Source of the DNA: an uncultured Oscillospiraceae bacterium
GTDB lineage: Bacteria > Bacillota > Clostridia > Oscillospirales > Oscillospiraceae
Assembly (NCBI GenBank): GCA_947629795.1
Contig: CANRFC010000006.1
Coordinates: 36,286 to 100,285, forward strand
Direction: 5' to 3'
Length of the DNA stretch: 64,000 nt
The notes below the pieces were generated by a model that worked only from the letters and a program-made list of their open reading frames with translations, did not search any database and was not told the origin of the DNA. Below, piece by piece: positions 2,927-24,867 of this stretch. The position numbers and the translations under genes are program-made. Position 1 is the stretch's first letter, and each line of letters starts with the position of its first letter.

Positions 2927-3025
2927 AGTGAGGACCTCCTTCGTCTGCATAGGGGTATTTTACTATAAGGCGGCGGGAAACGCAAGCGGGAGGGTCCGCC
3001 GGGGGCCAGGCCCCGGCGGATAAGA

Positions 3026-3057
3026 AGACCGCCCCGGGGAGAGCCCCGGAGCGGTCT
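3026..3057 (-). terminator. Probable terminator downstream of ilvC
   Basis: AGACCGCCCCGGGG / CCCCGGAGCGGTCT imperfect stem just after the ilvC stop, followed by TCTT on the minus strand. Confidence 0.5.
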
Positions 3058-3071
3058 GATGGAAAAGCAGC

Positions 3072-4091: not shown

Positions 4092-4235
4092 TTTCATACA
4101 CTCCTTTACAGTGGTTGGATTTCCGACCGATTGGGGTCAGTATGGCACAGAGCGGGGAAAAAGAATGTAACGCGCGATACAATTAAACGCTGAGCGGGTC
4201 AGCCTCCGGTATTCAGGGCAGTCGGGCCGGGCGCG

Positions 4236-4688
4236 TTATCCGAGGGCGAAGCCCAGCTCCACCTCATCCTCATCCGAGCGGCCGGTTTCCGTGAAGCCCA
4301 GCGCCTGGTAGAGGTGGTACGCGATGGAATTTTCGGGGTTTACCGTTAAGAGGACCCTGTCTGAGGGCCCAAAGGGCTTTGTGCGGATGTAGTTCATGGC
4401 CAGGGCCATGGCCGCTTTGCCGCAGCCTCTTCCCTGGTGCCGCGCGTCGATCATCAGGTGCCAGATATTGTAGGTTTTCTCGTCATAGTCATAGATGACC
4501 ATGAGATACCCCACAACATCACCGTTACAGCAGACGGCAAAGGGGGTGCACTGCCGGGAATAGACATACGCCTGGGCCAGGCTGCGAATGGGGTGGGATA
4601 CAAAATCCTCCTGCCAGGCGTTCAATTTTAAGGCAAAGCAGGCGAGGAAATTCGATTCATCCACTTTTTGCAGGGAAATATGATCCAT
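4236..4688 (-). CDS. GNAT acetyltransferase (spermidine/spermine N-acetyltransferase-like)
   Basis: Acetyl-CoA motif HQGRGCGKAAM and AYHLYQALGF; LAQAYVY N-terminal motif. Confidence 0.85.
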   Translation of the reverse strand: MDHISLQKVDESNFLACFALKLNAWQEDFVSHPIRSLAQAYVYSRQCTPFAVCCNGDVVGYLMVIYDYDEKTYNIWHLMIDARHQGRGCGKAAMALAMNYIRTKPFGPSDRVLLTVNPENSIAYHLYQALGFTETGRSDEDEVELGFALG

Positions 4689-4847
4689 ACTTTCTCCTTC
4701 CTGTGGGGAGGGTCAGCACATGAGCACCCTCCGGGCGGTTGATGGGAATATCCTGCTGTGTATTTTTCATAGCTGATCTCCCCCTTTCCCTGGAAGAAAT
4801 TGGATCATATATGGAAACACAGATATCTCTGTGGGGTTTTCCGCGGC

Positions 4848-5402
4848 TCAGAGCACGCTCTTGCCCAGATTGAACTCGGTGGTCTCCTTGCGCTCGTCGG
4901 AGATGGTGTAGGCGCCCCGCTCCAGGGCCACCATGCCGGTGCGGACCAGTTCCAGGATGCCGAAGGAGGCCAGGAGGTTCTGCATGGCCTCGGCCTTGGA
5001 CTCGTCGCCGATGAGGGCGATGGTCAGGGACTTGATGGACACGTCGATGATGGAGGCACGGAAGATGTTGGCCACCTGGATGATCTCGTTGCGCACATCG
5101 GCGGTCTCGGCCTTCACCTTGAACATCACCAGCTCCCGGCGGATGGACCGCTCAGGCTTGAGCTCCTGGACCGAGTAGACCGAGAACTGCTTGCGCAGCT
5201 GGTTCATCAGCTGCTCCATCATGGCGTCGTCTCCCATGACCTCGATGGTGATACGGGAGGTGGAGGGGTCGTCGGTGGTGCCCACGGCCAGGGATTCGAT
5301 GTTGTAGCCCTTCCGGGAGAAGAGCCGGGAGACCTGGGAGAGGACGCCGGCGGCGTTCTCCACCAGCACGGACAGGGTGTGGCGGGTATGTTCGGTTTTC
5401 AT
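4848..5402 (-). CDS. ilvN: Acetolactate synthase small (regulatory) subunit
   Basis: ACT domain LSVLVENAAGVLSQVSRLFSRKGYNIESL; ELVRTG; directly downstream of ilvB. Confidence 0.96.
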   Translation of the reverse strand: MKTEHTRHTLSVLVENAAGVLSQVSRLFSRKGYNIESLAVGTTDDPSTSRITIEVMGDDAMMEQLMNQLRKQFSVYSVQELKPERSIRRELVMFKVKAETADVRNEIIQVANIFRASIIDVSIKSLTIALIGDESKAEAMQNLLASFGILELVRTGMVALERGAYTISDERKETTEFNLGKSVL

Positions 5403-5415
5403 CTGCATCCCCTCC

Positions 5416-7125: not shown

Positions 7126-7402
7126 GGGCTTTCCTCCGTTCCAAGGGCAGAAATTATCATTTATCTTACCGCCCAACGGCGTTTTTGTCAATCGAAAGCC
7201 CGGCGTTTCGTCAATTTTTTGCGCCTGCGGCGGCGGGGGAGGGCAGCGCTTGGAAAAAGTGCCATAAATTACGGCGCAGACGAAATTTATCCGGCTTTTT
7301 TGCGGGGGAGGACTGGACATTTTGCGGAAACTGTACTATGATATACTCGTTTTTAAAGCGCGCTCTTTGGGGAAAGAGAAGCGAAAAGATTGAGGTGAGG
7401 CT

Positions 7403-8758
7403 ATGTTGCATCAGTTTTTCGGCGGAGTACACCCCGCCGAGCACAAGGACCTGACCGAGCATAAGGCCACAACGCCTCTGGCGGAGGCGCCGGCCCAGGT
7501 GGTCATTCCCATGGCTATGCACGTGGGAGCCCCCTGTAAGCCGGTGGTCGCCGTCGGCGACGAGGTGAAGGTAGGCACGCTCATCGGTGAGACCACCGGT
7601 CTGGGCGCGCCCATCCACGCCAGCGTGTCCGGCAGGGTGGCCGCCGTGGAGCCCAGGCCCTATGGCGGCGGCGGGATGATGATGTCCGTGGTCATCGACA
7701 ACGATTTCCAGGACACCCCCGACCCCTGTGTGAAGCACCGGGACAACGTGGACGCGCTGACCGGAGCTGAGATCATCGAGATCGTGAAGAACGCCGGCAT
7801 CACCGGTATGGGCGGCGCGGGTTTCCCCACCCACGTCAAACTCTCCGGCGCCGTCGGCAAGGTGGACACTCTGATCCTCAACGGCGCGGAGTGCGAGCCC
7901 TACATCACCTCCGACCACCGGCTCATGCTGGAGCGGGGCGAGGCCGTCATCGGCGGCGCCCGGCTCATGGCCAAGGCCTGCGGCCTTACGGAGGCCACCA
8001 TCGGCATCGAGCTCAACAAGCCCGACGCCATCGAGCACCTCAAGACCCTGGCGGGCAGCGATGTGCACATCGAGGGCCTGAAGACCCGGTACCCCCAGGG
8101 CGCTGAGAAGCAGCTCATCCAGATGATCACCGGCCGCCAGGTGCCTCCCGGAGGGCTTCCCGCCCACGTGGGCTGCCTGGTGAGCAACGTGGCCACCGCC
8201 GCCGCCGTGTGGGACGCGGTGACCGAGGGCAAGCCCCTGACCCGCCGCGGCGTGACCCTCACCGGCGGCGCCATGGCCGAGCCCATGAACGTCCTGGCCC
8301 CCGTGGGCACCCCCGTGGGCTGGCTGGTGAAGATGGCCGGCGGCTTCAAGGAGACCCCCGACCGGCTCCTCTACGGCGGCCCCATGATGGGCAACCCCAT
8401 CTACGACCTGGACGCGCCCATGATGAAGTCCACCAACTGCCTGCTGGCCCTGACCGCTGCCGAGGTGGCCGAGCAGGACCCCGCCCAGACCTGTATCCGC
8501 TGCGGCAAGTGCGTGGAGGCCTGCCCCATGCACCTGACCCCGCTGTTCATGCGCATGCGGGTGGACAAGCGCAAGTGGGATGAGGTGGAGGCGCTGCACG
8601 TGATGGACTGCATCGAGTGCGGCTCCTGCAACTACATCTGTCCCGCCCGGCTGCCCCTGGTGCAGTCCTTCCGGACGGCCAAGTTCGCCATCCGGGACAA
8701 GGCCGCCAAGGAGAAGGCGGCCCGGGAAGCCAAAGAGAAGGAGGCGGCGAAGGCATGA
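7403..8758 (+). CDS. rnfC: Rnf electron transport complex subunit C
   Basis: GMGGAGFPTHVK, NGAECEPY, two CxxCxxCxxxCP clusters; first gene of rnfCDGEAB. Confidence 0.96.
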   Translation: MLHQFFGGVHPAEHKDLTEHKATTPLAEAPAQVVIPMAMHVGAPCKPVVAVGDEVKVGTLIGETTGLGAPIHASVSGRVAAVEPRPYGGGGMMMSVVIDNDFQDTPDPCVKHRDNVDALTGAEIIEIVKNAGITGMGGAGFPTHVKLSGAVGKVDTLILNGAECEPYITSDHRLMLERGEAVIGGARLMAKACGLTEATIGIELNKPDAIEHLKTLAGSDVHIEGLKTRYPQGAEKQLIQMITGRQVPPGGLPAHVGCLVSNVATAAAVWDAVTEGKPLTRRGVTLTGGAMAEPMNVLAPVGTPVGWLVKMAGGFKETPDRLLYGGPMMGNPIYDLDAPMMKSTNCLLALTAAEVAEQDPAQTCIRCGKCVEACPMHLTPLFMRMRVDKRKWDEVEALHVMDCIECGSCNYICPARLPLVQSFRTAKFAIRDKAAKEKAAREAKEKEAAKA

Positions 8759-9831
8759 ACGAGTATAAGGATCTGAAGCTGACCGTGGCCTCCTCCCCCC
8801 ACGTGAACTCCCCGGTGAACACCCGGTCTCTCATGCTGGACGTGCTCATCGCCCTGGTCCCCGCCCTGTGCTTCGCGGTGTTTTTCCAGGGACCCAAGGC
8901 CCTGGCCCTGACCCTGGTCAGCGTGGCCGGCTGTGAGTTCTTCGAGTGGCTCTACCGCAAGCTCCTGAAGAAGCCCCAGACCATGGGCGACCTGTCCGCC
9001 GCCGTCACCGGCGTGCTGTTGGCCTTTGTCTGCCCGGTGACCCTGCCCTACTGGACCGTGCTCATCGGCGACTTCTTCGCCATGTTCGTGGTCAAGCAGC
9101 TCTTCGGCGGCCTGGGCAAGAACTTCCTCAACCCCGCCCTGGCGGGCCGTGCCTTCCTGATGCTCTCCTATCCCGTGCTCATGACCACCTGGGCCAAGCC
9201 GGGAGTGAGCAACTGGTTCGGCCTCACCGCTCAGTCGGCCGACGCCATCACCGCCGCCACCCCCATGGGCGTGATGCACGGCTCCACCGTGGCCGACCCC
9301 ATGCTCCCCTGGAAGGCGGCGGAGAGCGCCGGCACCCTCCGGGACCTGTTCATGGGCAACGTGGGCGGCTGTATCGGCGAGGTCTCCGCCCTGGCCCTCA
9401 TTATCGGCGGGATCTACCTCATCTGGCGGGGCGTCATCAACCCCCGCATCCCCGGGGCTTACATCGGTACCGTGGCGGTGCTCACCCTCATCTTCTCCCG
9501 GGGCAATCCCCACTTTGAGTGGATGCTCTCCCAGCTCTTCGGGGGCGGCCTGATGCTGGGCGCCTTCTTCATGGCCACCGACTATGTCACCAGCCCCTGC
9601 ACCCCCAACGGCGAGCTCATCTACGGTGTGGGCTGCGGCCTGCTCACCGTGTTCATCCGCTACTTCGGCGGCTATCCCGAGGGGGTCTCCTACGCCATCC
9701 TGCTGATGAACGTGTGCACCCCCATCATTGAGAAGTACACCCATCCCAGCCGCTTTGGCGTGAGCAAAGAGGACATCAGGAAGGCCAAAGAGGCGGCCAA
9801 GGCCGCCAAGAAGGGGGGCGCTGAGGCATGA
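8755..9831 (+). CDS. rnfD: Rnf subunit D
   Basis: SSPH, FGGLGKNFLNPALAGRAFL, FMN site DAITAATP; ATGA overlap with the rnfC stop. Confidence 0.96.
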   Translation: MNEYKDLKLTVASSPHVNSPVNTRSLMLDVLIALVPALCFAVFFQGPKALALTLVSVAGCEFFEWLYRKLLKKPQTMGDLSAAVTGVLLAFVCPVTLPYWTVLIGDFFAMFVVKQLFGGLGKNFLNPALAGRAFLMLSYPVLMTTWAKPGVSNWFGLTAQSADAITAATPMGVMHGSTVADPMLPWKAAESAGTLRDLFMGNVGGCIGEVSALALIIGGIYLIWRGVINPRIPGAYIGTVAVLTLIFSRGNPHFEWMLSQLFGGGLMLGAFFMATDYVTSPCTPNGELIYGVGCGLLTVFIRYFGGYPEGVSYAILLMNVCTPIIEKYTHPSRFGVSKEDIRKAKEAAKAAKKGGAEA

Positions 9832-12610: not shown

Positions 12611-12661
12611 TTCCGTCCCACCCCAGCCCACCCCACCTCGGGGTGGGCTGATTTTTTGCCC
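12611..12661 (+). repeat. 51-bp direct repeat, copy 1 (contains an intrinsic terminator hairpin)
   Basis: TTCCGTCCCACCCCAGCCCACCCCACCTCGGGGTGGGCTGATTTTTTGCCC, identical at 19260-19310; 11-bp stem CAGCCCACCCC/GGGGTGGGCTG plus T-tract. Confidence 0.95.
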
Positions 12662-12732
12662 CGGTTTTGGTTGAATACCATCCAAAATTGTTATACAATA
12701 GAGCCATCAAAGATAAAGAGGGGAGGGAGAGC

Positions 12733-13632
12733 GTGAAGATATCTCAACTTCGATACTTCTGTGAGGTCTGCAAGCTGCAGAATGTCAGCAAGGCCGCAGA
12801 GGTCCTGTATGTCTCCCAGCCGGCTATCTCTGCCGCGATCCGGGCACTGGAATCAGAGCTGCAGGTCACGCTGTTCCTGCGCTCCCGCAACCGCCTGACT
12901 TTGACAGCTGAAGGCGTCGCACTGAATGAGATGGCAAAAGAGATACTCTCCCGTGTGGACAGCATTCCCGAGCAGATCCGCAGCATGACTCAGCGTCGAA
13001 CGACCATCTCGGTGGGGCTTCCTCCACTCTCTTCCGCATTCTATATCCCCAAGCTGTTCAAAATCAAGCAGGAATATGAAAAGCTGCACCCCAACGTGGA
13101 AGTAGAAGTGGTCGAATTTCCCTCCTTTGCGGCTATGTGTGACCTGCTGGACAGCGGGAAGCTGGACTTGGCCCTCTCTGCCTTGGAAGAGAGCAGTTTT
13201 GCGGAGATGGACAAGTTGACGCTGTTCCAAACACCAATTATGCTGTGCGTGGGCCCCAACCATCCTCTGGTGAAGGAAAAACGTGTCAGCATCCACCAAT
13301 TCTACCAAGAACCCCTGGCCCGGACCTATCACAGCGCGTCGGCCATGTACCGGGTCATCAACAGCTATTATTCCAAAAACTGCTATACACCAAATTATAA
13401 GTATTCCTTTACCCAGTCCAAGGCAGCGGAACTTCTGCTGCTGGAAAACCAGGCGGTATTGTTGGCTCGTCCGGAGATGGAGTATATTGACAGCAAGCTG
13501 GTGGCAATTCCTCTGGAGGAACCCCTGATGATCGACATCGGGGTGCTGTGGAGCAGCAAACAGCCCATTACCAGCGAGGTGGCGGCCTTTGTGGAGCGGC
13601 TGAAGCAGGTGAATTTCCGAAGTGTTCGGTAG
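12733..13632 (+). CDS. LysR-family transcriptional regulator
   Basis: GTG start after GGAGGGAG; KISQLRYF...VSKAAEVLYVSQPAISAAIRALESEL HTH followed by a substrate-binding domain. Confidence 0.93.
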   Translation: MKISQLRYFCEVCKLQNVSKAAEVLYVSQPAISAAIRALESELQVTLFLRSRNRLTLTAEGVALNEMAKEILSRVDSIPEQIRSMTQRRTTISVGLPPLSSAFYIPKLFKIKQEYEKLHPNVEVEVVEFPSFAAMCDLLDSGKLDLALSALEESSFAEMDKLTLFQTPIMLCVGPNHPLVKEKRVSIHQFYQEPLARTYHSASAMYRVINSYYSKNCYTPNYKYSFTQSKAAELLLLENQAVLLARPEMEYIDSKLVAIPLEEPLMIDIGVLWSSKQPITSEVAAFVERLKQVNFRSVR

Positions 13633-13719
13633 GAAGGACAAACTTCTGCTTACCTTGCTCAGATGAACCGGTATTATAAATAAAAATTATCGCATTTTCA
13701 AACCATCAGATAGCGATAT

Positions 13720-13769
13720 TATACAAAACGTTCTCTTTCTGCTATAATCAAGAACAGAAAGAGAACGTT
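13720..13769 (+). promoter_or_regulatory. Promoter of the transporter-asparaginase-lyase operon; -10 bracketed by a 15-bp inverted repeat
   Basis: TATACA-17-TATAAT (13743-13748); AACGTTCTCTTTCTG (13727-13741) / CAGAAAGAGAACGTT (13755-13769). Confidence 0.6.
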
Positions 13770-13851
13770 CTTTTTTATCGCAAATTTTCCGGAAAACGCG
13801 CATTTCCAAGGCAAATTGGACAAACCATACAATAGAAAGAGGGGAAAAGTT

Positions 13852-15075
13852 ATGTCTTTGATTGAACGGTTAGGCATGTCCGACTCGGTACAGGTAGTAG
13901 CGATTCTCGGCGTTATGTTTCTCGTTATCTATTTTGTAGTTTCGTATATTCATAAGATTCCGGTTGTGCGAAAGATTGGCGCGCCTTTGGTTTTGGTGTT
14001 TGTGGGTATCATTCTGACCAACTGTGGGATCCTTCCCGGCCCTACCTATCCACTGTATAGCACGATCAATTCCATTGGAATGCCCTTGGCCCTCTCTATG
14101 TTGCTCTTCTCAATAGATCTGCGTTCCATGAAAAAGATTTTAGGGGCAAAGCCGTTTCTGATTATGCTGCTCGGTGCGGTTGCAACATCTGTTGGCGGTT
14201 TGATTGTAGGCCTGGCCTGGGGCGCAATCGGCAATCCCTCACCGGACCAACTGAAGGGGCTTGCAATGATGATTGGTGCGGGAATTGGCGGTACGGAGAA
14301 CTTCATTGCGGTGGGGCAGTCCCTGGAGGCCACCACTGAGGCTTTGGCCGGCTATTCCATTCCCATGGTATTTGCCTGTCAGGCAATTGTTGCCATCAAC
14401 TATGTAATTGCCGGCGATCCATCACTGCAGGATAAGTTTAACGGCTGGATCAAGCCAAGCGAAAACATTGTTGATCGGATCCATGCCTATGGAGAAGATG
14501 AGGTGGTCAAGCGGCCCTTTGATGGACAGTCCAGCCTGCTGGTCTTTGCTATGGCCTGCCTGGCTACTGGCGTTTCCTTCTGGCTGGGTGGAATCATTCC
14601 TCCGATCCCTCTTCCCGGCGGCGGCGTGCTGACCATCCCTTCACTGCTGATTCTTACCACGATCTGCCTGCTGTGCGGCACATTTACAAAATTTGTGCGT
14701 ATCGAAAAAATGCAGGAAATGGGCGGCGCTGCGCTGTATCTTGTCGTTTTGGCCTTATTCATGACCATGGACTTTTCTACCTTTGCGGACAACCTGGTGA
14801 TTCTGCTGCCCTTCTTCATTCTGTGTGTCATTCATTGGATTTTGATCATGCTGTTTGCAAAGCTGTTCAAAGTTGACATTGTCTCCACGATTATTGCTTC
14901 CACTGCCAACATGGGCGGCAATGTGTCTTCTCCCATCTGCGCCACACTGACAGGCTATAAGCAGCTGGTTCCCGTTGCAGTCATGATGGCTGCCATCGGC
15001 ACAGCGCTTGCCAACTATGGCGGCTTTGCCATCGGTCAGATCCTTCTTAAGGTCATCTGCGGGATAACAATTTGA
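13852..15075 (+). CDS. DUF819-like multi-pass membrane protein, putative transporter
   Basis: ~10-11 TM helices; IGGTENFIAV and IIASTANMGGNVSSP motifs resemble DUF819 (from memory). Confidence 0.7.
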   Translation: MSLIERLGMSDSVQVVAILGVMFLVIYFVVSYIHKIPVVRKIGAPLVLVFVGIILTNCGILPGPTYPLYSTINSIGMPLALSMLLFSIDLRSMKKILGAKPFLIMLLGAVATSVGGLIVGLAWGAIGNPSPDQLKGLAMMIGAGIGGTENFIAVGQSLEATTEALAGYSIPMVFACQAIVAINYVIAGDPSLQDKFNGWIKPSENIVDRIHAYGEDEVVKRPFDGQSSLLVFAMACLATGVSFWLGGIIPPIPLPGGGVLTIPSLLILTTICLLCGTFTKFVRIEKMQEMGGAALYLVVLALFMTMDFSTFADNLVILLPFFILCVIHWILIMLFAKLFKVDIVSTIIASTANMGGNVSSPICATLTGYKQLVPVAVMMAAIGTALANYGGFAIGQILLKVICGITI

Positions 15076-15092
15076 TATCGAGGTGCGCTCAT

Positions 15093-16109
15093 ATGAAGAA
15101 GAGAATCAAGGTTTTGCTTTTGGGTGGAACCATTGCCTACAGTGAAAAAAGCGGCCGGCCTGCCGTGGGAGATATCACATCTTTGGCGCTGGACATGCCG
15201 GAAGTGGCGGATTATGCTCAGCTTGAAGTGGAGCAGTTCCGCAGGATATCCAGCCCGGACTTTCAAGTCGAAGTTGCAGTGGAACTGGTGAATCGGATTG
15301 AGCAGATCCTAAGGGAAGAGCATCCCGATGGGATTGTTGTGGTCCAGGGGACTGACGTCATGGATGAAGTGGCCTTTTCCCTTCATCTGCTGATAGACAC
15401 GGATGTCCCCATTGCCATTACCGGAGCGATGCGGAATCCCGACATGAAGGGAGCTGACGGTCCTGCAAACCTGTTGGCCGCCATCCAGGTAGCTGCATCA
15501 GACAATTGCAGGGGAATTGGCGTAGTTGTGGTTTTCAATGACGTCATTATGTCCGCCGGCACCGTTCGGAAAGCGCATCCCCAGAGTACAGGCGCCTTTG
15601 TGTCTGAATATCCTCTGGGCTATGTAGCTGAAGGGACGCCGTCTTTGCGGGTTTGGCCGATCAAGCGCAGGCTGCCTTGGCTGAAACTGAAAACGGACAA
15701 GGTCTGCACACTGCCTATCTACGCGGCCCCCCTTGGCGATGACGGACTTCTTCTGCCCAAGGTACGTGAACTGAGGTATCCCGGCCTTATCGTAGAAGGC
15801 ACTGGTGGAGGACACTGCTCCAGCCGTATCGTCCCGGCCTTGGTGGACTTAGCAAAGGACCTGCCGGTGGTAATGACCTCCCGTGTGGCGGTTGGCGACC
15901 TTTTGACCAATACCTATGGAGACTGTCCAGGCACTGAGAAATATCTGTATGAGCGCGGTATCATATGCGGAGGGCTCCTCAATGCGAGACAGGCGCGGCT
16001 CCTGCTGATCTTCCTGCTGATGTCTGGTTGTGATCGGGAGCAGATTCGGGAGAGTTTTCGTATTTACTCGAAAGCCTTCGAAATCCCGGAGCAGTACAAG
16101 AAACTATAA
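15093..16109 (+). CDS. Asparaginase/glutaminase-family amidohydrolase, cytoplasmic (no signal peptide)
   Basis: LGGTIA and QGTDVM catalytic Thr motifs, ITGAMR, SADGP-like GADGPANL. Confidence 0.9.
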   Translation: MKKRIKVLLLGGTIAYSEKSGRPAVGDITSLALDMPEVADYAQLEVEQFRRISSPDFQVEVAVELVNRIEQILREEHPDGIVVVQGTDVMDEVAFSLHLLIDTDVPIAITGAMRNPDMKGADGPANLLAAIQVAASDNCRGIGVVVVFNDVIMSAGTVRKAHPQSTGAFVSEYPLGYVAEGTPSLRVWPIKRRLPWLKLKTDKVCTLPIYAAPLGDDGLLLPKVRELRYPGLIVEGTGGGHCSSRIVPALVDLAKDLPVVMTSRVAVGDLLTNTYGDCPGTEKYLYERGIICGGLLNARQARLLLIFLLMSGCDREQIRESFRIYSKAFEIPEQYKKL

Positions 16110-16144
16110 AATGGTAGGTAACATTTGACAAGGAGGACCAGAAA

Positions 16145-17668
16145 ATGTCTGTTTATCGAGGCGAAGGCGTGCGTCTGAAAAAAGAGACCAGCCAAAACCT
16201 GATCAATACATGCTATCCCGGCCCGGATGAGACCGTGATGGGGAAATATGCCCGGATGCGCCCTCAACTGCCCTACTTCCATGCCTTTGACAAGGCCCAT
16301 CTGGTTATGCTGGTGGAACAGGGCCTGGTGCCGGTGGCGGATGCCCAGAAGATGTTCAAAGTCTTTCGCGAGGTGGAACAGGAGGGTGTGGAGGAAGCCA
16401 GGGCCGCCACCTGCGAACATATGCACTCCGGCGAGGCCATCCTTACCGCAAAACTGGGCAAGGAGATTGGCGGTGAGGTCCACCTTGGCCGCAGTTCCGG
16501 AGATCTGCTGACCGTCTCCTATCGGATGGCTATGCGGGAAAAAGTACTGACCCTCTGCGAGCAGTTCAATCAGATGCGCAAGGCCATCCTGAAACTGGCC
16601 GGTGAGAATCTGGAGACGGTGATCCCCGGCTACACCCATATGCAGCATGCTCAGCCTCAGACGCTGGCCCACTATCTGGGCTTCTGGGAGAGCTCCTTTG
16701 ACCGGGACTTTGAGCGCTTCCGCGAGTATTATCGGCGGCTGAACATGAGCCCCGCTGGGGCCGCTGTGGTGGTGGGTTCGGACTTTCCCCTGGACCGCGA
16801 GCGTACCTGCCGGCTCCTGGGTTTTGACGAGATCAACCTCAACACACTGGATTCAATTTACAGCCGGGATGTGGAACTGGAGGCCCATACCATCCTGACC
16901 GTGATGACGGCTACTCTGGGTCGCATGTGTGAAGATCTGCTCCTGTGGTCTTCCTCCGAGTTCAACATGGTGGAGATCGACGATGGCCTGTGCGGGACCA
17001 GTTCTATCATGCCCCAGAAGAAGAACGCCTACGGAGTGGAGTACTTGAAGGGCCTGGTGGGAACCTGCCTGGGCTACCTGGTGGAGTCGGTGACCATTTA
17101 CAAAAATCCGCCTACAGCCACCACCTTTGAGTGGATCCGCAATTTGACCGATGCCTGGCGGGGATATGATGAGGTCATCACTGCTCTGCCGCTGGTCACT
17201 GAGACCCTGGAGACCCTCACCATCCACAAGGACCGGATGCTGGAGCAAGCCGGCGCCTTCTGGGATACCGCCACCGACCTGGCCGGTGCCATTGTGCGGG
17301 AGGGCAAGCTTCCCTGGCGCTTTGGTCACCAGATCACCGGCGTGGTGGTACGTATGGCCATTGAGGAGGGCCGGCAGCCCAAGGAGGTGGACAGCGCCTT
17401 TGTGGACCGGGCGGCGCAGGTCATCCTGGGCAAGCCCCTGCATATGGACGAAGAGGTTATCCGCAAGGCCATGGATCCGACCCACTCGGTCCTGGCCCAT
17501 AAGATGCCCGGCGGCCCCGCACCCGAGCGGATGCGGGAGGAACTGACGATCCATTCGGGCAAGCTGGAGGACGATATAGCCTGGGTCGCCCGGTGCCGGG
17601 AAAACCTCCGCCAGGCCAGCGGCCAGCTGGAGTCGGCCATCGACGGCATTTTGGAGCAGAAGGCGTAA
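16145..17668 (+). CDS. Argininosuccinate-lyase-like C-N lyase, paralogue 1 (aspartase/fumarase superfamily)
   Basis: PGYTHMQHAQP, signature GTSSIMPQKKNAY, HLGRSSGD. Confidence 0.85.
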   Translation: MSVYRGEGVRLKKETSQNLINTCYPGPDETVMGKYARMRPQLPYFHAFDKAHLVMLVEQGLVPVADAQKMFKVFREVEQEGVEEARAATCEHMHSGEAILTAKLGKEIGGEVHLGRSSGDLLTVSYRMAMREKVLTLCEQFNQMRKAILKLAGENLETVIPGYTHMQHAQPQTLAHYLGFWESSFDRDFERFREYYRRLNMSPAGAAVVVGSDFPLDRERTCRLLGFDEINLNTLDSIYSRDVELEAHTILTVMTATLGRMCEDLLLWSSSEFNMVEIDDGLCGTSSIMPQKKNAYGVEYLKGLVGTCLGYLVESVTIYKNPPTATTFEWIRNLTDAWRGYDEVITALPLVTETLETLTIHKDRMLEQAGAFWDTATDLAGAIVREGKLPWRFGHQITGVVVRMAIEEGRQPKEVDSAFVDRAAQVILGKPLHMDEEVIRKAMDPTHSVLAHKMPGGPAPERMREELTIHSGKLEDDIAWVARCRENLRQASGQLESAIDGILEQKA

Positions 17669-17741
17669 CAACATGCGGGCCGGGCAGGGGAGAGGTCCTG
17701 CCCGGCCAGTAAATACTATTCTAATATGGAGGAGCTGCCTT

Positions 17742-19259
17742 ATGGCATTTTACCGAGGTGCAAATATCAGATTGACCAAGGAGACCAGCGAAAATCTTAT
17801 GAAGACCTGCTATCCCGGCCCCGATGAGGAGACTCTGGGGCGGTATGCCCGCCTGCGCCCCCAATATATCGCCTTTCAGGCTTTTGATAAGGCGCATATC
17901 ATTATGCTCTGTGAACAGGGCTGGCTGACCCGCCAGGAGGCCGCCGATATGCTGCGGGTCCTTCGCGAGCTGGAGCGCGGCGACGTGGAGGAGGCCCGGG
18001 CTGCCACCGGCGAGCACTGGCACGCCGGCGAGGCCATCCTTACCCAAGCCCTGGGGAAAGAAGTGGGCGGCAAAATGCACATTGGCCGCAGCTCCGGCGA
18101 TCTGCTGAATGTGACCTATCGCTTCACCCTGCGGCGGAAACTGCTGGATTTGGGCCTCGCCCTGAACAAGTTCCGGGATGCGGTCCTCCGGGTCGCTCAG
18201 CTCCATCTGGACACCGTGATGCCAGCCTATACCCATATGCAGCATGCCCAGCCCCAGACCTTCGGCTACTACTTGGCAAGCTGGGCCACCGCTTATGACA
18301 GGGACTTTCAGCGCCTGCGCCAATTCTTTGAGCGCGCCAACGTCAGCCCCGCCGGCGCCGCCGTCACTGTGGGATCGGAGTTTGGCCTGGACCGTGAGCG
18401 CACCTGCCGGCTTTTGGGGTTCGACAGCGTCAGCGTCAACTGTTTTGACAGCATTTGGGGACGGGATGTGGAGATCGAGGCCATGTCCGTGCTTTCCCTT
18501 CTCTGCGGAGATGTGGGCCGCCTGGCGGAGGACCTGCTGTTGTGGTCCACGCCCGAATTCCGAATGGTGGAGTCGGATGACAGCCTGTGTGGGACCAGTT
18601 CCATCATGCCTCAGAAGAAAAACGCTTACGCTCTGGAATACTTGAAAGGCCTGCCCTGCATTGCCTCCGGCTTGTTTGTGGAGATGTCCATGGTCCACAA
18701 AAACCCCACCAGTGCTCCCGTCCTGGAGTGGATCCGCATGATGGGTGACACCTGGCGCAGTTACGATGAAGTTATTACCGCTTTGGCTCTGGCGGAGGAG
18801 GAGATCGCCACTCTGAAGGTGAACAAGGACCTGATGCGCTACCGGGCCGGTTATTACTGGGCTACCGCCACCGACCTGGCCGGCGTGATGGTCACGGCCT
18901 GTGGCATCCCCTGGCGTCGGGCTCACCAGATCACCGCTATCGTGGTCCGCCTGGGCATTGAGCGCGGGATCAAGCCGGAGGAAGTCCCTCTGGCCCTGGT
19001 GCAGGAAGCTTCCCGGCAGTATAACGGAGAAGAACTCCCACTGACACAGGAGCAGATCCGTGCTGCCATGGACCCGGCAGAGTCGGTGAAGCACCACGAC
19101 ATGCCCGGCGGCCCTGCCCCCCAGCGAGTGGCAGAGGAGCTGGCCCTGCATCGGGAAAACCTGAAGAAGGACGAGATGTGGCTGACAGAGCGTCAGGAGC
19201 GGGAGCGCCAGGCAGCCCGGCAAATGGAGGAAGCCATCGACAGGATTTTGGAGGCCTGA
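17742..19259 (+). CDS. Argininosuccinate-lyase-like C-N lyase, paralogue 2
   Basis: PAYTHMQHAQP, GTSSIMPQKKNAY, HIGRSSGD; collinear with paralogue 1; GGAGG before ATG 17742. Confidence 0.85.
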   Translation: MAFYRGANIRLTKETSENLMKTCYPGPDEETLGRYARLRPQYIAFQAFDKAHIIMLCEQGWLTRQEAADMLRVLRELERGDVEEARAATGEHWHAGEAILTQALGKEVGGKMHIGRSSGDLLNVTYRFTLRRKLLDLGLALNKFRDAVLRVAQLHLDTVMPAYTHMQHAQPQTFGYYLASWATAYDRDFQRLRQFFERANVSPAGAAVTVGSEFGLDRERTCRLLGFDSVSVNCFDSIWGRDVEIEAMSVLSLLCGDVGRLAEDLLLWSTPEFRMVESDDSLCGTSSIMPQKKNAYALEYLKGLPCIASGLFVEMSMVHKNPTSAPVLEWIRMMGDTWRSYDEVITALALAEEEIATLKVNKDLMRYRAGYYWATATDLAGVMVTACGIPWRRAHQITAIVVRLGIERGIKPEEVPLALVQEASRQYNGEELPLTQEQIRAAMDPAESVKHHDMPGGPAPQRVAEELALHRENLKKDEMWLTERQERERQAARQMEEAIDRILEA

Positions 19260-19310
19260 TTCCGTCCCACCCCAGCCCACCCCACCTCGGGGTGGGCTGA
19301 TTTTTTGCCC
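19260..19310 (+). repeat. 51-bp direct repeat, copy 2 (terminator of the lyase operon)
   Basis: Identical to 12611-12661; begins immediately after the stop codon at 19259. Confidence 0.95.
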
Positions 19311-19535: not shown

Positions 19536-20207
19536 ATGACGGCCACGACCCAGCAGTCAGAAAAGCGCTCCGGCAGTGTGCTCTTCAACGTGATCGGGGT
19601 GCTCCTGTGCCTGATCTTCATCCCGGTCATCCTGGTGAACCTGGTGCTCATCGCCAAGACCTACACCGACCCCGACCACATCCCCAGCGTGGCCGGCTTC
19701 AGCCCGGTGATCTGTCTCTCCGGCTCCATGGAGCCCACCTTCTCGACAGGGGACATGATCCTCATCCGCCATGTGGCCGACCCCGCCGCCCTGGAAAAAG
19801 GCGACGTGATCTGCTACCTCACCGGGGAGGGCATCGCCGTGACCCACACCATCGTCCAGGTCACCGACCTGGACGGCCAGGTCCGCTACGTCACCCAGGG
19901 CGACGCCAACAACACCGCCGACCAGCTTGCGGTGAGCCCTGACCAGATCGAGGGGGTCTACACCGGGGTCCACATCCCCAAGCTGGGCTCCCTGGCCATG
20001 TTCATGCAGACCACCACCGGCATGCTCCTGTTCATCGTCTGTCCTCTCCTGCTTCTGGTGGGCTGGGACATCCTCCGCCGGAGGATGGACGCCAAGCGCG
20101 AGGCCCAGCACACCCGGGAACTGGAGGAGCGCCTGAAGGAGCTGGAATCCGCCGGCGGCACCGCCCCCGGGGAGGAGGCCAAGATCTCCCGGGAACCCCC
20201 GCAGTAA
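19536..20207 (+). CDS. sipW: Signal peptidase I, SipW/ER-type (S26B), copy 1
   Basis: LSGSMEP catalytic Ser, VTHTI His, TQGDANNTAD; N- and C-terminal TM helices. Confidence 0.9.
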   Translation: MTATTQQSEKRSGSVLFNVIGVLLCLIFIPVILVNLVLIAKTYTDPDHIPSVAGFSPVICLSGSMEPTFSTGDMILIRHVADPAALEKGDVICYLTGEGIAVTHTIVQVTDLDGQVRYVTQGDANNTADQLAVSPDQIEGVYTGVHIPKLGSLAMFMQTTTGMLLFIVCPLLLLVGWDILRRRMDAKREAQHTRELEERLKELESAGGTAPGEEAKISREPPQ

Positions 20208-20222
20208 GCGGCCTTGCCCCCG

Positions 20223-20291
20223 CCGTTCACGCAGAAAAAGCTACCGTTCACGCAAGCCACCCCGCAGGCTCCCCTTTCATGGGAGTATAAT
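20223..20291 (+). promoter_or_regulatory. Activator-type promoter: tandem direct repeat upstream of TATAAT
   Basis: CCGTTCACGCA at 20223-20233 and 20244-20254 (period 21); TATAAT 20286-20291; no recognisable -35. Confidence 0.55.
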
Positions 20292-20351
20292 GAAAATGAG
20301 AACAAGGACCTGTTTTTCCCAAAATGTCAACATAATAAAGGAGGAAATGAA

Positions 20352-21017
20352 ATGAAAAAGAGAGGGTACATCGGAAGACTGGCCGCCCTGGCCCTGGTGC
20401 TGTGCATGGTCACCATGAGCCTCACCGCCGGCACCCTGGCCAAGTACGCCAGCGATGCCAGCGGCAAGGCGAGCGCCGTCGTGGCAAGGTGGGACGTTGA
20501 TTTCAAAAATGGGACAGAGGATTACACTTCGAGCACCGTTATTACGCTGAAGCCGGACGCAGACAAATTCGTGGCTACCAAATTGGTGAAGGACGAAAGA
20601 ATTGCTCCGGAGACCACGGGTAGTTTGGAGTTGAGCGTAGATGGCACAAACACAGAAGTGGCCTTTGACTATGCCATCACGCTGGATTTGAGCACCATTG
20701 AGCAGACAATTGGGGATTCGGCGGCCAACGGACTTGACACAACTGCACCGCTGAAATTCTACAAGAATGTGGAGTGCACGCAAGAGGCTGATATGATTGA
20801 CGGCAAGCCTGGCGTGAAGGGCACGATTATGGCTGATGCCACTGGTGATGACAGAAAGGCTACCGCAACAATTTACTGGAAGTGGGATTCTTCTGGTATT
20901 AATATTGATTCCACAGCCGCGGGAGATGCCACTGATACAAAACTGGGCATTGAGGCCGACACATTCAAGATTCCTGTTACCATCAAGGCCGAGCAGAAAG
21001 TCGCTGCCAATCCCTAA
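20352..21017 (+). CDS. SipW-class signal peptide protein, probable major TasA-like pilin
   Basis: MKKR + hydrophobic stretch + AGTLAKY motif, then the beta-rich IAPETTG...YWKW core; strong RBS and its own promoter. Confidence 0.75.
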   Translation: MKKRGYIGRLAALALVLCMVTMSLTAGTLAKYASDASGKASAVVARWDVDFKNGTEDYTSSTVITLKPDADKFVATKLVKDERIAPETTGSLELSVDGTNTEVAFDYAITLDLSTIEQTIGDSAANGLDTTAPLKFYKNVECTQEADMIDGKPGVKGTIMADATGDDRKATATIYWKWDSSGINIDSTAAGDATDTKLGIEADTFKIPVTIKAEQKVAANP

Positions 21018-21026
21018 CCCTACCCC

Positions 21027-21077
21027 CGCCGGAGGCTTCGGCCTCCGGCGGAGGACGTTCAGGGAACGTCTTCCGCC
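21027..21077 (+). other. Two tandem stable stem-loops without a U-tract after the major pilin gene
   Basis: CGCCGGAGGC-TTCG-GCCTCCGGCG, then GGCGGAGGACGTTC-AGG-GAACGTCTTCCGCC. Confidence 0.7.
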
Positions 21078-21107
21078 GAGGGCCGAAACCACCTCACCCC
21101 GTGACCA

Positions 21108-22556
21108 ATGGAGGAACCTGACTTGAATACCGTCTCAGACCCCGCCGGGCGAGAGGGGGAGAAGAGCAGGCGCAGGTCGCTGACCCCTCTGCTGCTTCTC
21201 TTGCTGTTTCTGCTGCTCGCCACCTCCTGTATCGTGGGCTTCCTCCTGGGCCGGACCACCGAGCCCGGGCGCTTCGGCGCGCTCATCGACACCATTGTCC
21301 TCTCCCCGGAGCAGGCCGACCCCACCCCTGTCCCCACCCCCGCGGAGACCCCCGGGGCCGCGGAGACCCCCGCCGTGGGCTCACCCGCCGCCCAGGCCAC
21401 CCCGGCCGGAGAGCTCTCCCAGCTCATCTGTCTGCTGGGCCTGGTCCGCTATACCGACGGCGCCCCCTTCACCCAGGGCAGCGTGGAGCTGCGCAGTCAG
21501 CCCCGGTACTCCTCCCTGGACGAAGAGGGCCGCTTCCGCTTTGACGACGTGGAGCCGGGGGACCATCAGATCACCGTCCTGGACCTGGCGGGAAACCCTT
21601 TGGCCACCCGGACCATCCGGGTGGAGCGGGACGCCCTGGAACAGGCCTATATGGAATATGAGGCCGCGGTGTGCGTCATGCACATCCGGCTCCTCACCGT
21701 GGAGGTCAACGTGGAGCTCACCCTGGATGAGGACCCGGGCGCCCCCCTGGAGGTGGTCCTGGTGTCCACCCGGGAGGAGGGCGGGGAGACCCAGCCCGCG
21801 GGCCGGCCCTCCCCGGCGCCCACCGCCCTCCCTTCCGAAGAGCCCACCCCCCAGGCCAGCCCCGATATCTCTCCGGCGGTCACCCCCGCCGTCAGTCCCT
21901 CGGCGGCGCCCACTCCACTTCCCGACAATACCCCCGGCGTGACGCCCACGGCAACGCCCGCCGTCACCCCCAGTCCCACCCCAAGCCACAGCGGGGGAAA
22001 TGACGGCCCCGCCCCTCAGCCCACGCCTGCTCCGACTCCCACGCCTCCTGTGGAGGAGGCCCTGGTCTACCACGGCAACAGCGATGTGACCTGGACCCAG
22101 CAGGCCCGGATCGACCTCTTCCGGACCCTTGCCGGCGGCCAGGCGAAGATCGCCCCCGGTTCCAGGGGCTACTACCTCTTCCGCCTGAAAAACGGCCAGC
22201 AGGAGGACGTCGCCTTCACCCTGGCCCTCCGGGAGGGGAGCTTCCACGTCCCCCTGGAGTACCGCATCACCACCGACGACCCCATCCCCAAGGCCCTCAC
22301 CGCCTGGCAGACCGCCTCCACCGGTGCCGAGACCGTCAGCAGCCCGGTGCCCCTGAAGGCGGAGGGAGAGGGGTTCTATCAGATCCAGTGGCGCTGGCTC
22401 CCCGACAGGAATGACGCCGTGGATACCGCCCTGGGCGAGCAGGCCGGGGTGTATATTCTGGACCTCACCATCCGGGTGGAGGGCGGCGCAGGAGGGCCAT
22501 CTTGCGGGTCTTCCGCGCCGCCGTTCTTATCCTGCTCTCGGCGGTGGTGCTCATAA
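21108..22556 (+). CDS. Membrane-anchored protein: TM helix, Ig/prealbumin-like domain, Pro/Thr stalk, C-terminal pilin-like domain
   Basis: RRRS + LLLLLLFLLL TM; LDEEGRFRFDDVEPGDHQITV; PT/PA repeats; C-terminal IAPGSRG...YQIQWRW...DTALG resembles the 20352 protein. Confidence 0.7.
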   Translation: MEEPDLNTVSDPAGREGEKSRRRSLTPLLLLLLFLLLATSCIVGFLLGRTTEPGRFGALIDTIVLSPEQADPTPVPTPAETPGAAETPAVGSPAAQATPAGELSQLICLLGLVRYTDGAPFTQGSVELRSQPRYSSLDEEGRFRFDDVEPGDHQITVLDLAGNPLATRTIRVERDALEQAYMEYEAAVCVMHIRLLTVEVNVELTLDEDPGAPLEVVLVSTREEGGETQPAGRPSPAPTALPSEEPTPQASPDISPAVTPAVSPSAAPTPLPDNTPGVTPTATPAVTPSPTPSHSGGNDGPAPQPTPAPTPTPPVEEALVYHGNSDVTWTQQARIDLFRTLAGGQAKIAPGSRGYYLFRLKNGQQEDVAFTLALREGSFHVPLEYRITTDDPIPKALTAWQTASTGAETVSSPVPLKAEGEGFYQIQWRWLPDRNDAVDTALGEQAGVYILDLTIRVEGGAGGPSCGSSAPPFLSCSRRWCS

Positions 22557-23005
22557 ACGGGGCCCTGCTCGTCTCCCGCTTCGTGCTGAAGCAGGAGCCG
22601 CCCCATGTGTTTGGATGCTACCCCATGCTGGTCGCCACCGGGAGCATGGAGCCCAACCTTCCCGCCGGGTCCCTGGTCATCGCCCGGGCCCGGGAGGACT
22701 ATCAGGTGGGGGACGTGATCTCCTTCCGCCAGGGCGGGGCGGTGGTGACCCATCGCATCATCGGAGTGGACCCGGAGGGCTGCCGCACCGCCGGGGACGC
22801 CAATACCGCCCCGGACAGCGCCCCGGTGCCCTGGGACGCGGTGCTGGGCAAGGTGGTGCTCTGCCTGCCCTGGGCGGGCCGTCTGGCCCTGGCCCTGCGG
22901 GGCCCCATCGGAATTCTGGCTTTGGCGGCGGGAGGAGGACTTCTCCTCTTCCTGCCCGAGAGACGGGGGAAGGAGCGCTATGAGGACAAGGAGAAAAAAG
23001 CATAG
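22502..23005 (+). CDS. sipW: Signal peptidase I, SipW-type, copy 2
   Basis: TTG start after GGAGG; ATGSMEP, VTHRI, TAGDAN motifs. Confidence 0.85.
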   Translation: MRVFRAAVLILLSAVVLINGALLVSRFVLKQEPPHVFGCYPMLVATGSMEPNLPAGSLVIARAREDYQVGDVISFRQGGAVVTHRIIGVDPEGCRTAGDANTAPDSAPVPWDAVLGKVVLCLPWAGRLALALRGPIGILALAAGGGLLLFLPERRGKERYEDKEKKA

Positions 23006-23588
23006 CCGGCTCTGGGCCTACCTGCTCTACCTGGGCCTGGTGACCTCCCTTATCCTGTCGGTGACCCTGGCCCGGTACGCCTCCACCGCCGGGGGTACCG
23101 GCACCGCCACCGTGGCCGCCCTGGCCGGCGGGGTGGAGGACGCTGCGGAGGCCGCCCCCATCGAGCTGTCCCTGGGAGACCTCTCTCCCGGCGACACCAG
23201 AGTGCTGAAATTCAAGGTGGTCAACTATTCCGGCGATAAGCGCAGCGAGGTGGCCCTGGACTACACCCTCACCCTGGAATCCACCAACAATCTGCCCCTC
23301 ACCTTCACCCTGGCCGCTCAGGCCGAAAATCAGGCCGACCTGGTGACCCTCCCCGCCGACGGGGCCGTCCTGGGGCCGGATACCCTCCAGACCGAAGGGG
23401 AGAAGATGGGGACCAGAATGGAGACCCTCTCCGGCGGCGCCTTCGACCTCACCGGGGAAGATCAGGAGCATACCTATACCCTCACGGTGACCTGGCCGGC
23501 GGGGGAGTATGATGGAAATTATTCCCAGGAAATCGACCTGGTGACCGTAAAAGTCAAGGCGATACAGAGACTCCAGACCGGGGGGTAG
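22980..23588 (+). CDS. SipW-class signal peptide protein, probable minor pilin
   Basis: Basic N-terminus, hydrophobic core, SVTLARY motif; LSPGDTR...YTLTVTWP core. Confidence 0.7.
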   Translation: MRTRRKKHSRLWAYLLYLGLVTSLILSVTLARYASTAGGTGTATVAALAGGVEDAAEAAPIELSLGDLSPGDTRVLKFKVVNYSGDKRSEVALDYTLTLESTNNLPLTFTLAAQAENQADLVTLPADGAVLGPDTLQTEGEKMGTRMETLSGGAFDLTGEDQEHTYTLTVTWPAGEYDGNYSQEIDLVTVKVKAIQRLQTGG

Positions 23589-23645
23589 AGACCCAAAACC
23601 GGGGGGTCAGAGAGCCGCATGAGCCTACGAAAAGGGGGGAACGGG

Positions 23646-24650
23646 ATGGCAAAATACCGGGGAAAACGGCTCTCCGCCGTTCCTGACCCGCCCCCGGAGG
23701 GCCGGGTGCCCAGCCGTCTGGACCCCTCCTTGGCCGTTCCGGAGGAAGCCCGCAAACCCAGGCGCCCCAAGCGTTTGGCCCCTCCCAGATTCCCCCTGGT
23801 GGTCCGCCTTCTCTTCCTGGCCGCCCTCCTGACCACCGCCGGGAGCCTGGGCCTCACCACCGCCCGCTACCTGAAGGACTGGTCCCAGGACTCCCTGGCC
23901 ACCGCCGGGAGTTTTTACTTCGCCAGCGCCGAGCTCAATGGCGGCACCCACCGCCTGACCGGCGACAAGACGGTGGATCTCTCCTTCACACTGCGGAATT
24001 ATCTGGTGGCCGGGTATCCCACGAAAAGCGCCATTTCCTACACCTGCCAGGTCACCGATAGCAAGGGAAAGCTGGTGTCCAACGTCAAATGGCTGAACAG
24101 CGACAACGCCGAGATCGGCACCGCCGCCACCGGGGACGGGGTCTCCGACAGCGCGGCCGGCGGGGTGTTTACCGGGAGCTTTGCCGCCAATGACGGCGGG
24201 GAAGCGGGAGGACAGACAAGGACACTGATCTGCCGTATTCCCAAAAACGCCTTCGGGGCCAAGGGGGACCAGGTCCTCACCCTCACGGCCCGGGCCACTT
24301 CGCCCTATTCCGCGACCCTGGAGGTCCGGCTTGCCCTGACCACCGGGGGCGTGCAGATGGTGGTCACCGACCCCGGCGCCAAGAACGGCGCGGTGAGCGT
24401 GGCCCTCTACAACACCGACGAGGAGGCCCACACGGTGGATCTGAAGTGGCCGGCGGGGAGCGAGATCACCCTGGTCTCCGACCCCACCTGGGATGTGGTC
24501 CCCACAGGCAGCGGGGACAAGACCACCGGGCGGGGGACGGTGACAGTTCCCGGAAAGGGCGCGGTCTCCATGGTATTCCTGAAAAAGGACACCACCCAGA
24601 ACTTTACCGAGGAGAATTTCCCCTTCACGGTGACCGACGCCGCCAACTGA
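23646..24650 (+). CDS. SipW-class signal peptide protein, probable minor pilin/adaptor
   Basis: Long basic Pro-rich n-region, hydrophobic core, GLTTARY motif, two beta-rich domains. Confidence 0.6.
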   Translation: MAKYRGKRLSAVPDPPPEGRVPSRLDPSLAVPEEARKPRRPKRLAPPRFPLVVRLLFLAALLTTAGSLGLTTARYLKDWSQDSLATAGSFYFASAELNGGTHRLTGDKTVDLSFTLRNYLVAGYPTKSAISYTCQVTDSKGKLVSNVKWLNSDNAEIGTAATGDGVSDSAAGGVFTGSFAANDGGEAGGQTRTLICRIPKNAFGAKGDQVLTLTARATSPYSATLEVRLALTTGGVQMVVTDPGAKNGAVSVALYNTDEEAHTVDLKWPAGSEITLVSDPTWDVVPTGSGDKTTGRGTVTVPGKGAVSMVFLKKDTTQNFTEENFPFTVTDAAN

Positions 24651-24867
24651 TCCCAGGGCCCGGAAGAGGGAAAGGCCGCAGGGGCCCGGCGGAGTGACAA
24701 GATCGAGGCAAGGGGCCTTACTTGACAGGACTTGGAAGCGGGAAAGAGCGTGCAGGGCCGGTGGAGTGATAGCGAGCAAGGAATTTCACTTGCCAGGCTC
24801 CGGGAGCGGGAAAGACAACGGGGCCCGGGGAAGAGCCCGAAGACCACGGAGAAAGGAGGGCTGGAGG

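Follow-up and report, generated by a model that had tools for sequence, protein, structure and literature searches.

Several described systems frame the locus considered here. The EDDS lyase of Chelativorans sp. BNC1 (PDB 6G3D, 6G3H, 6RX8), a member of the aspartase/fumarase superfamily, is itself a catabolic C–N lyase that releases fumarate from N-substituted aspartates. The S-(2-succino) lyase 2SL (PMC9706529) and the phosphate-eliminating lyase XcbC illustrate how members of this superfamily have been recruited to new leaving groups, and how readily they are mis-annotated before being characterised. In Bacillus subtilis, ansAB pairs an asparaginase with a fumarate-yielding lyase of the same superfamily. 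Finally, the Salmonella fra locus, an acquired island put to use in the gut, encodes the FraE asparaginase, FraA, the FraD kinase and the FraB deglycase, and deamidates an N-substituted asparagine before the aspartate and its substituent are parted (PMC4072780, PMC12359202). Here we set against these systems a five-gene islet of about 6.6 kb, at positions 12733–19259 of a 64,000-nucleotide stretch of DNA from an uncultured Oscillospiraceae bacterium (contig CANRFC010000006.1; the whole stretch is referred to below as the window). It includes a tandem pair of lyases that, judged by phylogeny and active-site residues, stand apart from argininosuccinate lyase (ArgH). An earlier note on this DNA, made from the letters alone, had described a LysR regulator, a transporter, a cytoplasmic asparaginase and the two lyases, and gene calls and Pfam searches bear out all five, which lie on the + strand throughout:

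12733..13632, + strand: LysR-family regulator (299 aa) with HTH_1 and LysR_substrate Pfam domains, in the same direction as the predicted operon
13852..15075, + strand: DUF819 membrane transporter (CPA/AT superfamily), allele "a", 407 aa (gene calls; PF05684, 6e-38)
15093..16109, + strand: L-asparaginase homologue (type I/II fold, cytoplasmic), 338 aa, with N- and C-terminal asparaginase domains
16145..17668, + strand: lyase 1 (Ly1), 507 aa, GRSSGD clade of the aspartase/fumarase superfamily
17742..19259, + strand: lyase 2 (Ly2), 505 aa, a paralogue of lyase 1

Both lyases are placed in the superfamily by PF00206 (Lyase_1; 8e-43 and 3e-42) and by the SS-loop signature. They are 57% identical to one another in a gapless alignment, lyase 2 starting at 17742 (MAFYRG, which aligns with Met1 of lyase 1) rather than at the spurious open reading frame (ORF) start at 17673. 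With ArgH and delta-crystallin they share the fold, the SS-loop signature, the YTH histidine and an ASL_C2 C-terminal domain, but identity to ArgH is 28–32%, GRSRND and NPD of ArgH are replaced by GRSSGD and NAY, and their genomic setting is a LysR/transporter islet, not an arg operon. The earlier note's reading of the motifs (SSIMPQKKN, PxYTH and GRSSGD present, LWGGRF absent) holds for both proteins: each carries GTSSIMPQKKN, P(G/A)YTHMQHAQP and GRSSGD, with M(S/A)(V/F)YRG..(V/I)RL at the N-terminus in place of LWGGRF.

The GRSSGD motif recurs in 107 of the 120 best homologues from a search of 5.8 billion proteins, at identities down to 40%, and by this distribution it is a family signature rather than a chance change. 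Those of its bearers that have been named are all called "argininosuccinate lyase". In a neighbour-joining tree of 106 sequences, however, the GRSSGD group is monophyletic in 94 of 100 bootstraps and lies apart from true ArgH sequences (those of lactobacilli, streptococci, Treponema and archaea); the two lyases fall within separate subclades, each with 100% support. Nor is the group sister to EDDS lyase, a pairing recovered in 0 of 100 bootstraps. EDDS lyase is nonetheless the closest solved protein both by sequence (E values of 2e-68 and 1e-75, compared with 1e-45 to 1e-52 for ArgH) and by fold: a search with an AlphaFold2 model of the monomer (predicted local distance difference test score 88) returned template-modelling scores of 0.88–0.90 over about 505 columns for EDDS lyase, and 0.76–0.81 for ArgH. 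Like EDDS lyase, the islet enzymes are around 500 residues long, end in a long C-terminal helix and retain the catalytic Ser280, Lys286 and Asn288. Unlike it, they show 31–35% identity, altered pocket residues, a four-residue insertion in the loop bearing Y320, and a histidine, as in ArgH, at the position of Q159.

Profile scores bring into focus the possibility that both enzymes are genuine, if divergent, argininosuccinate lyases serving arginine biosynthesis or salvage. Consistent with that, both exceed the 279.5-bit cut-off of the ArgH equivalog TIGR00838 (327 and 303 bits) and every public name among their relatives agrees. Yet EDDS lyase is no ArgH and scores higher still, at 341 bits, so passing this threshold is not diagnostic of ArgH function; real ArgH proteins score 551–617, the GRSSGD clade spans 288–327, and even an ArgH-like lyase of another type (on contig L107) reaches 294. 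A separate clade, the replacement of ArgH-invariant residues at the positions that line the EDDS lyase pocket, and residence in a strain-variable foreign islet with a LysR gene and a transporter all speak against the possibility, as does the genomic neighbourhood: in line with the earlier note, no arg gene appeared among some 35 large ORFs of the window compared with Pfam, a scan that was not exhaustive. We regard genuine ArgH function as very improbable. The second-best NCBIfam match, XcbC, gives 242 and 269 bits against a cut-off of 575, within the 207–282 that true ArgH proteins score on the same model, and AspA models give lyase 1 merely 29–38 bits. By tree, residues and scores, neither lyase is a true ArgH, and the divergence from ArgH that the earlier note had called, along with the phylogenetic comparison with ArgH and EDDS lyase that it had proposed, comes out in favour of a separate, uncharacterised GRSSGD clade. 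The public name is probably wrong for the clade, and the hundreds of database "argininosuccinate lyases" that it holds, which the curated ArgH cut-off lets in together with EDDS lyase, are very probably misnamed. On sequence grounds, we class the GRSSGD lyases as an uncharacterised clade within a known superfamily, set in a new operon arrangement. Identification of the substrate would give this superfamily, valued for biocatalytic hydroamination, a new C–N (or C–X) lyase specificity, and would reveal a nutrient that gut Clostridia use.

The pattern of retained and replaced residues bears on the chemistry. Every clade retains Ser-Ser of the SS loop, Lys and Asn of QKKN, Thr and His of YTH along with the Glu partner of this His, and Ser and Asp of C1. 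In contrast, the Arg-Asn of GRSRND and the Asp of NPD, found in all 15 true ArgH proteins sampled, give way to Ser-Gly and Tyr. The 320s loop is similarly altered: Tyr (15 of 15 true ArgH), Asn (14 of 15), Gln (15 of 15) and Lys (9 of 15) are all replaced in lyases 1 and 2 by small or hydrophobic residues, in that order Thr/Pro, Thr/Val, Ile and Leu/Met. We take the Arg-Asn of C1 and its companions in ArgH to form the pocket for the arginine moiety, an assumption that draws on the delta-crystallin structures and on analogy with EDDS lyase; the human ASL papers searched yielded no residue-level account of substrate contacts. In EDDS lyase, R112, N113, Q159, N288, D290 and Y320 lie 4–6 Å from the substrate, the amine pocket being made up of D290 and Y320 (PMC12363623, PMC6973171). 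The islet lyases have Ser for R112, Gly for N113 and Tyr for D290, and the Y320 loop is rebuilt. Across the clade, the residue equivalent to D290 varies by subclade (Y, F, N, H or D), each subclade having its own genomic context, and the lyase 1 and lyase 2 subclades show consistent differences in the 320s loop. The two paralogues have been kept as a pair over the long term with pocket differences particular to each. With the catalytic and fumarate-binding residues kept and the pocket residues replaced, beta-elimination giving fumarate looks conserved, and the leaving-group pocket looks new.

The asparaginase would supply the step before elimination. It matches PF00710 (3e-43) and PF17763 (9e-18), keeps the domains and catalytic residues of the type I/II family (Thr13, Thr87-Asp88 and Lys160), and at the Ser-Pro substrate site does not obviously depart from Bacillus-type enzymes. 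It falls below every NCBIfam equivalog cut-off (166 bits against 314). The catalytic GGT already occupies residues 11–13, which leaves no signal peptide; FraE is periplasmic, whereas the islet enzyme is leaderless. The two closest informative homologues in the JGI data (L107, L109) adjoin ArgH-like lyases of another type and SSS or DASS transporters. Another homologue, 46% identical, accompanies a lyase of matching divergence (44–46%) on contig L015. There, at 7801–8802 on the − strand, the enzyme, which is associated with a phosphotransferase system (PTS), reads GTN for the canonical GTD, changing the Asp of the Thr-Asp-Lys triad to Asn.

Clusters with related lyases, listed by identity to the islet enzymes, place this pairing in context:

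L145 (Ly1 87%, Ly2 77%): DUF819a, asparaginase, Ly1, Ly2, MFS transporter, excisionase, tyrosine integrase
L007 (Ly1 87%): LysR, DUF819a (split), asparaginase, Ly1, MFS transporter; adjoins malic enzyme, FumC and Nfn-like genes
L010/L011 (Ly1 80%): LysR, DUF819b, Ly1, Ly2, AbrB-type transporter; plasmid-like contig without asparaginase
L146/L147 (Ly1 69–74%, Ly2 75%): Ly1, Ly2, two ChrA-like genes, MFS transporter, FumC, malic enzyme, all co-directional
L014 (about 53%): two lyases, PGA_cap, LysR, LIV-type ATP-binding cassette (ABC) transporter
L015/L016 (44–46%): asparaginase and LysR, transcribed away from a run of lyase, EIIA, Zn-dehydrogenase, EIIB, EIIC, EIID, class II aldolase, MFS transporter, peptidase
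L005, L006 and L012, beta-proteobacteria (about 54%): one lyase, TctC, LysR

A further lyase, 52% identical, occurs in Paracoccus (L084). The tandem pair is conserved in at least four lineages. Class II fumarase and malic enzyme adjoin GRSSGD lyases in two independent clusters (L146, 626–7090; L007, 3724–6347), the former with two ChrA-like half-transporters and an MFS transporter between the lyases and the fumarase and malic enzyme genes. The window's DUF819a is 88–94% identical to that of L007, 90% to that of L145 and 49% to the second allele, DUF819b. DUF819a occurs together with an asparaginase in all cases (window, L007 and L145), DUF819b never (L100 and L010). Across these clusters, the asparaginase shows a specific link to such lyases in a number of unrelated settings and comes with a transporter allele of its own, which fits a scheme of deamidation followed by elimination.

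With about even confidence, we propose that the islet is a LysR-controlled catabolic operon whose lyases release fumarate from an N-substituted aspartate, the asparaginase feeding in the amide form. DUF819 would import a small aspartate-type compound bearing a substituent on its alpha-nitrogen, and in the allele of the window this would be the beta-amide, or asparagine-type, form. The cytoplasmic asparaginase would then strip the amide, exposing the free beta-carboxylate that lyases of the superfamily need. Lyases 1 and 2 would carry out anti beta-elimination to fumarate and the free amine; the paralogues probably favour different leaving groups or stereoisomers, or else may assemble into a mixed tetramer. 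Host fumarase and malic enzyme could take fumarate on to pyruvate, or fumarate could serve as an electron sink. The deamidated intermediate (or a product) is probably what LysR senses, given that one regulator also serves an allele without the asparaginase. What we infer comprises operon status, the sequence of steps, the fumarate product and nitrogen as the leaving atom; the presence of fumarase and malic enzyme in two related clusters makes fumarate the likely product.

In its chemistry such a route would resemble EDDS lyase or ArgH, and in its two steps ansAB or fra. It resembles fra in deamidating first, but FraB deglycase, FraD kinase and the Dcu-type transporter FraA have no counterpart in the islet, and cleavage in fra falls on the sugar side to give aspartate, whereas cleavage here would fall on the aspartate side to give fumarate. 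It differs from ansAB in that the lyases are of the ArgH branch rather than the AspA branch, and occur in duplicate alongside a dedicated transporter and a LysR gene. Unlike 2SL and XcbC, the lyases are accompanied in the islet neither by acetyltransferase and deacetylase genes nor by coenzyme M (CoM) genes.

The same genes could also serve plain asparagine and aspartate catabolism, with ammonia rather than a substituted nitrogen as the leaving group. In that case, by analogy with ansA-ansB, DUF819a would import asparagine and DUF819b aspartate, the asparaginase would yield aspartate, and the GRSSGD lyases would be aspartate ammonia-lyases. Gene content and the logic of the a and b alleles fit this equally well; the fumarase and malic enzyme of L146 and L007 would complete the classic route, and the asparaginase, with all its canonical catalytic residues and a Bacillus-type Ser-Pro site, offers no objection. 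TctC-family binding proteins, moreover, are known to bind aspartate. To our knowledge, however, no enzyme of the ArgH branch is an aspartase, and the AspA scores of lyase 1 are low. Were ammonia the constant leaving group, one would not expect a pocket position to change from subclade to subclade, with a different transporter type in each (PTS, ABC, TctC, DASS or SSS), and one simple reaction would not need a tandem pair kept in at least four lineages. We consider plain asparagine and aspartate catabolism unlikely, though a serious contender. The retained His-Glu pair, the rebuilt and subclade-variable pocket, and the variety of transporters together with the PTS context favour, without proving, a substituted nitrogen over ammonia.

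The same His-Glu pair bears on leaving groups other than nitrogen. The superfamily includes enzymes that eliminate C–S bonds and phosphate, XcbC is the second-best NCBIfam match, and the asparaginase is dispensable both in the sister allele described below and in L010; the substrate could on these grounds be an S-(2-succino) thioether, as for S-(2-succino)cysteine (2SC) lyase, or a phosphate or oxygen ester, as for XcbC, with the asparaginase separate or accessory. Against this, the XcbC scores lie far under the 575-bit cut-off and are like those of true ArgH, and the His-Glu pair that ArgH uses to protonate a nitrogen leaving group is kept. The acetyltransferase and deacetylase of the 2SC pathway (PMC9706529) are absent from the islet. 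The recurrent link to an amidase also argues for a nitrogen-rich, amino-acid-type substrate. A non-nitrogen leaving group appears improbable.

Among N-substituted aspartates, the earlier note had singled out fructose-asparagine, an Amadori product, or an opine such as succinamopine. The L015/L016 operon, in which the lyase and the asparaginase keep company with a mannose-family PTS, a class II aldolase and a Zn-dehydrogenase, makes a sugar–asparagine conjugate plausible for that relative. The host lives in the rabbit gut, and rabbit feed is presumably plant-based and heat-processed; in the pocket, Tyr in place of Asp at the D290 equivalent adds an aromatic residue, and the cationic Arg is lost. 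The islet of the window and its close relatives nevertheless have no kinase, deglycase, PTS or any sugar enzyme, and their transporters (DUF819, AbrB, MFS, ChrA-like) are of ion-coupled organic-anion types. The absence of fraA, fraB and fraD from the islet tells against fructose-asparagine, and crown-gall opines are unlikely in the gut. Either compound is therefore an improbable substrate, and naming one remains a guess. The broader scheme of the earlier note, deamidation of an N-substituted asparagine and then elimination of fumarate, fares better: the non-ArgH lyases, the asparaginase link and the neighbouring fumarase and malic enzyme genes support it, but no gene points to the substrate and the asparagine/aspartate route fits too.

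Several points weigh against an N-substituted aspartate as the substrate, or temper the data from which we argue for it. The islet carries no enzyme for the released amine, though a sugar-amine or an opine would lead one to expect such an enzyme, and the gene content would fit free asparagine and aspartate catabolism as well. A sister allele at 99% identity and an orthologous cluster at 80% both do without the asparaginase, no substrate is known for DUF819, and searches of NCBIfam, Pfam, the PDB and the accessible literature turned up no characterised member of the GRSSGD clade. The clade tree is a simple distance tree; pocket size is not readable from a monomer model; the 320s-loop alignment is ambiguous around its four-residue insertion, where Tyr320 aligns with Trp by phmmer and with Thr/Pro by MAFFT; and the operon structure is predicted from spacing and a terminator scan only. 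Even so, complex-substrate contexts recur in relatives, including the mannose-type PTS and aldolase of L015, the LIV-type ABC transporter of L014 and TctC in the beta-proteobacteria. It is conceivable, if doubtful, that the GRSSGD lyases and their dedicated cytoplasmic asparaginase make up a widespread, hitherto unrecognised route by which gut anaerobes use N-substituted (glycated or alkylated) asparagine and aspartate, cleaving on the aspartate side to fumarate and a free amine or amino-sugar, with the small cassette swapping transporter–amidase modules between strains to suit the amide or the acid form.

How the islet came to lie where it does is recorded at its borders, which together with its candidate control sites comprise:

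12611..12661, + strand: 51-nt direct repeat, left copy, which is the rnfB intrinsic terminator (repeat search and terminator scan)
12671..12699, + strand: promoter-like site TTGAAT-17-TACAAT, just within the islet and 5' of lysR (consensus match only)
13718..13778, strand not set: inverted repeat between lysR and the DUF819 gene, with 24-nt arms (83% complementary) and a 13-nt spacer
19260..19310, + strand: 51-nt repeat/terminator, right copy, its first base directly after the lyase 2 stop codon

The 5' neighbour of the islet is the rnf operon (rnfC to rnfB). The 51-nt repeat is perfect (100% identity), its copies are spaced by 6649 nt, and the two matches compare with none expected by chance. 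As a terminator it folds into an 11-bp stem with nine GC pairs followed by ATTTTTT (−25.8 kcal/mol, z −3.3). Third-position GC content is 59–76% across the five islet genes, compared with 86–94% in rnfB and the downstream genes. By its direct repeats and deviant composition, the islet is a horizontally acquired cassette. It contains no integrase, whereas the relative L145 has an excisionase and a tyrosine integrase. The duplication could stem from a Campbell-type single crossover, represent an att core, or have been left after loss of the int/xis genes that are intact in L145; a target duplication made by a transposase would be much shorter than these 51 nt. The right copy differs in run X3 by a T>C change at 19293.

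The islet sequence occurs in rabbit-gut metagenomes. In run X22 (48x), depth is 48.4 in the flank, 48.4–49.7 in the islet and 46 downstream, and the equal depths indicate one integrated copy; the 51-nt node itself stands at 77.6 (about 1.6x). No empty-site joint was seen in the 12 runs that cover the region, and a family-alignment scan of genome contigs gave, among the matches listed, mostly distant ArgH-like paralogues and no empty site. Joins from the end of the islet to its start through one repeat copy do occur, in contig L098 (6679 nt, or 6649 + 30) and in run X7 (19259 to 12611). A circular or tandem form would give such joins, but they are probable artefacts of the k=31 graph: X7 is a low-depth run, and depths in X22 are equal.

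A second allele, B, occupies the same site in L100, L101 (5602 nt) and runs X3 and X19, with the order LysR, DUF819b, Ly1, Ly2. LysR and both lyases are 99.1–99.9% identical to those of the window (LysR alone 99.6%), and the segment 13779–16122 is exchanged for 1270 nt that encode DUF819b and no asparaginase. The left breakpoint of the exchange, 13778/13779, abuts the inverted repeat with 24-nt arms. Rabbit-gut samples differ in this respect, some carrying allele A and others allele B, and in run X22 the assembly graph branches at 13749–13778, which suggests that both alleles coexist there. This pair, with and without asparagine-type uptake, is a ready-made natural genetic contrast for the nutrient search. 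Within the loop of the inverted repeat lies a TG-extended −10 box (TATACA-17-TATAAT), and repeat and box together form a candidate operator/promoter for the DUF819 operon. The arms are far longer than the usual LysR T-N11-A site.

Contig L109, which holds one of the two closest asparaginase homologues, offers a different setting. Over 1202–9646, a LysR gene is followed by a pair for component B of a Grd/FarE-like reductase, a DASS anion symporter and a protein that matches cis-3-hydroxy-L-proline dehydratase in part, and after these come the asparaginase (41% identical to that of the window) and an ArgH-like lyase. The selenoprotein-B-like ORF ends at residue 349 of a 435-position model. A Stickland-type reductive pathway may be linked to the asparaginase/lyase pair in this case.

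On the 3' side of the islet in the window, two ORFs resembling S26/SipW-type signal peptidases (19536–20207 and 22502–23005, with a weak Pfam match in the second only) are interleaved with small secreted proteins without a Pfam match, and are followed by an ORF of 2135 aa (24694–31101), likewise without one. Judged by this arrangement, 19536–31101 may be a locus for a SipW-dependent fibre or pilus. Further along, GC content falls to 39–55% between 32000 and 48000, compared with about 65% in the host, and defence-like genes are found. Features in and next to this part of the window are as follows:

31258–32100: ADP-ribosylglycohydrolase
33279–36431: ResIII/PLD/DUF3427 helicase-nuclease
36533–37549: Macro-domain protein
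38574–40505, − strand: AAA_23 ATPase
42395–43303, − strand: D12 adenine methyltransferase
46509–47393: DUF6339 protein

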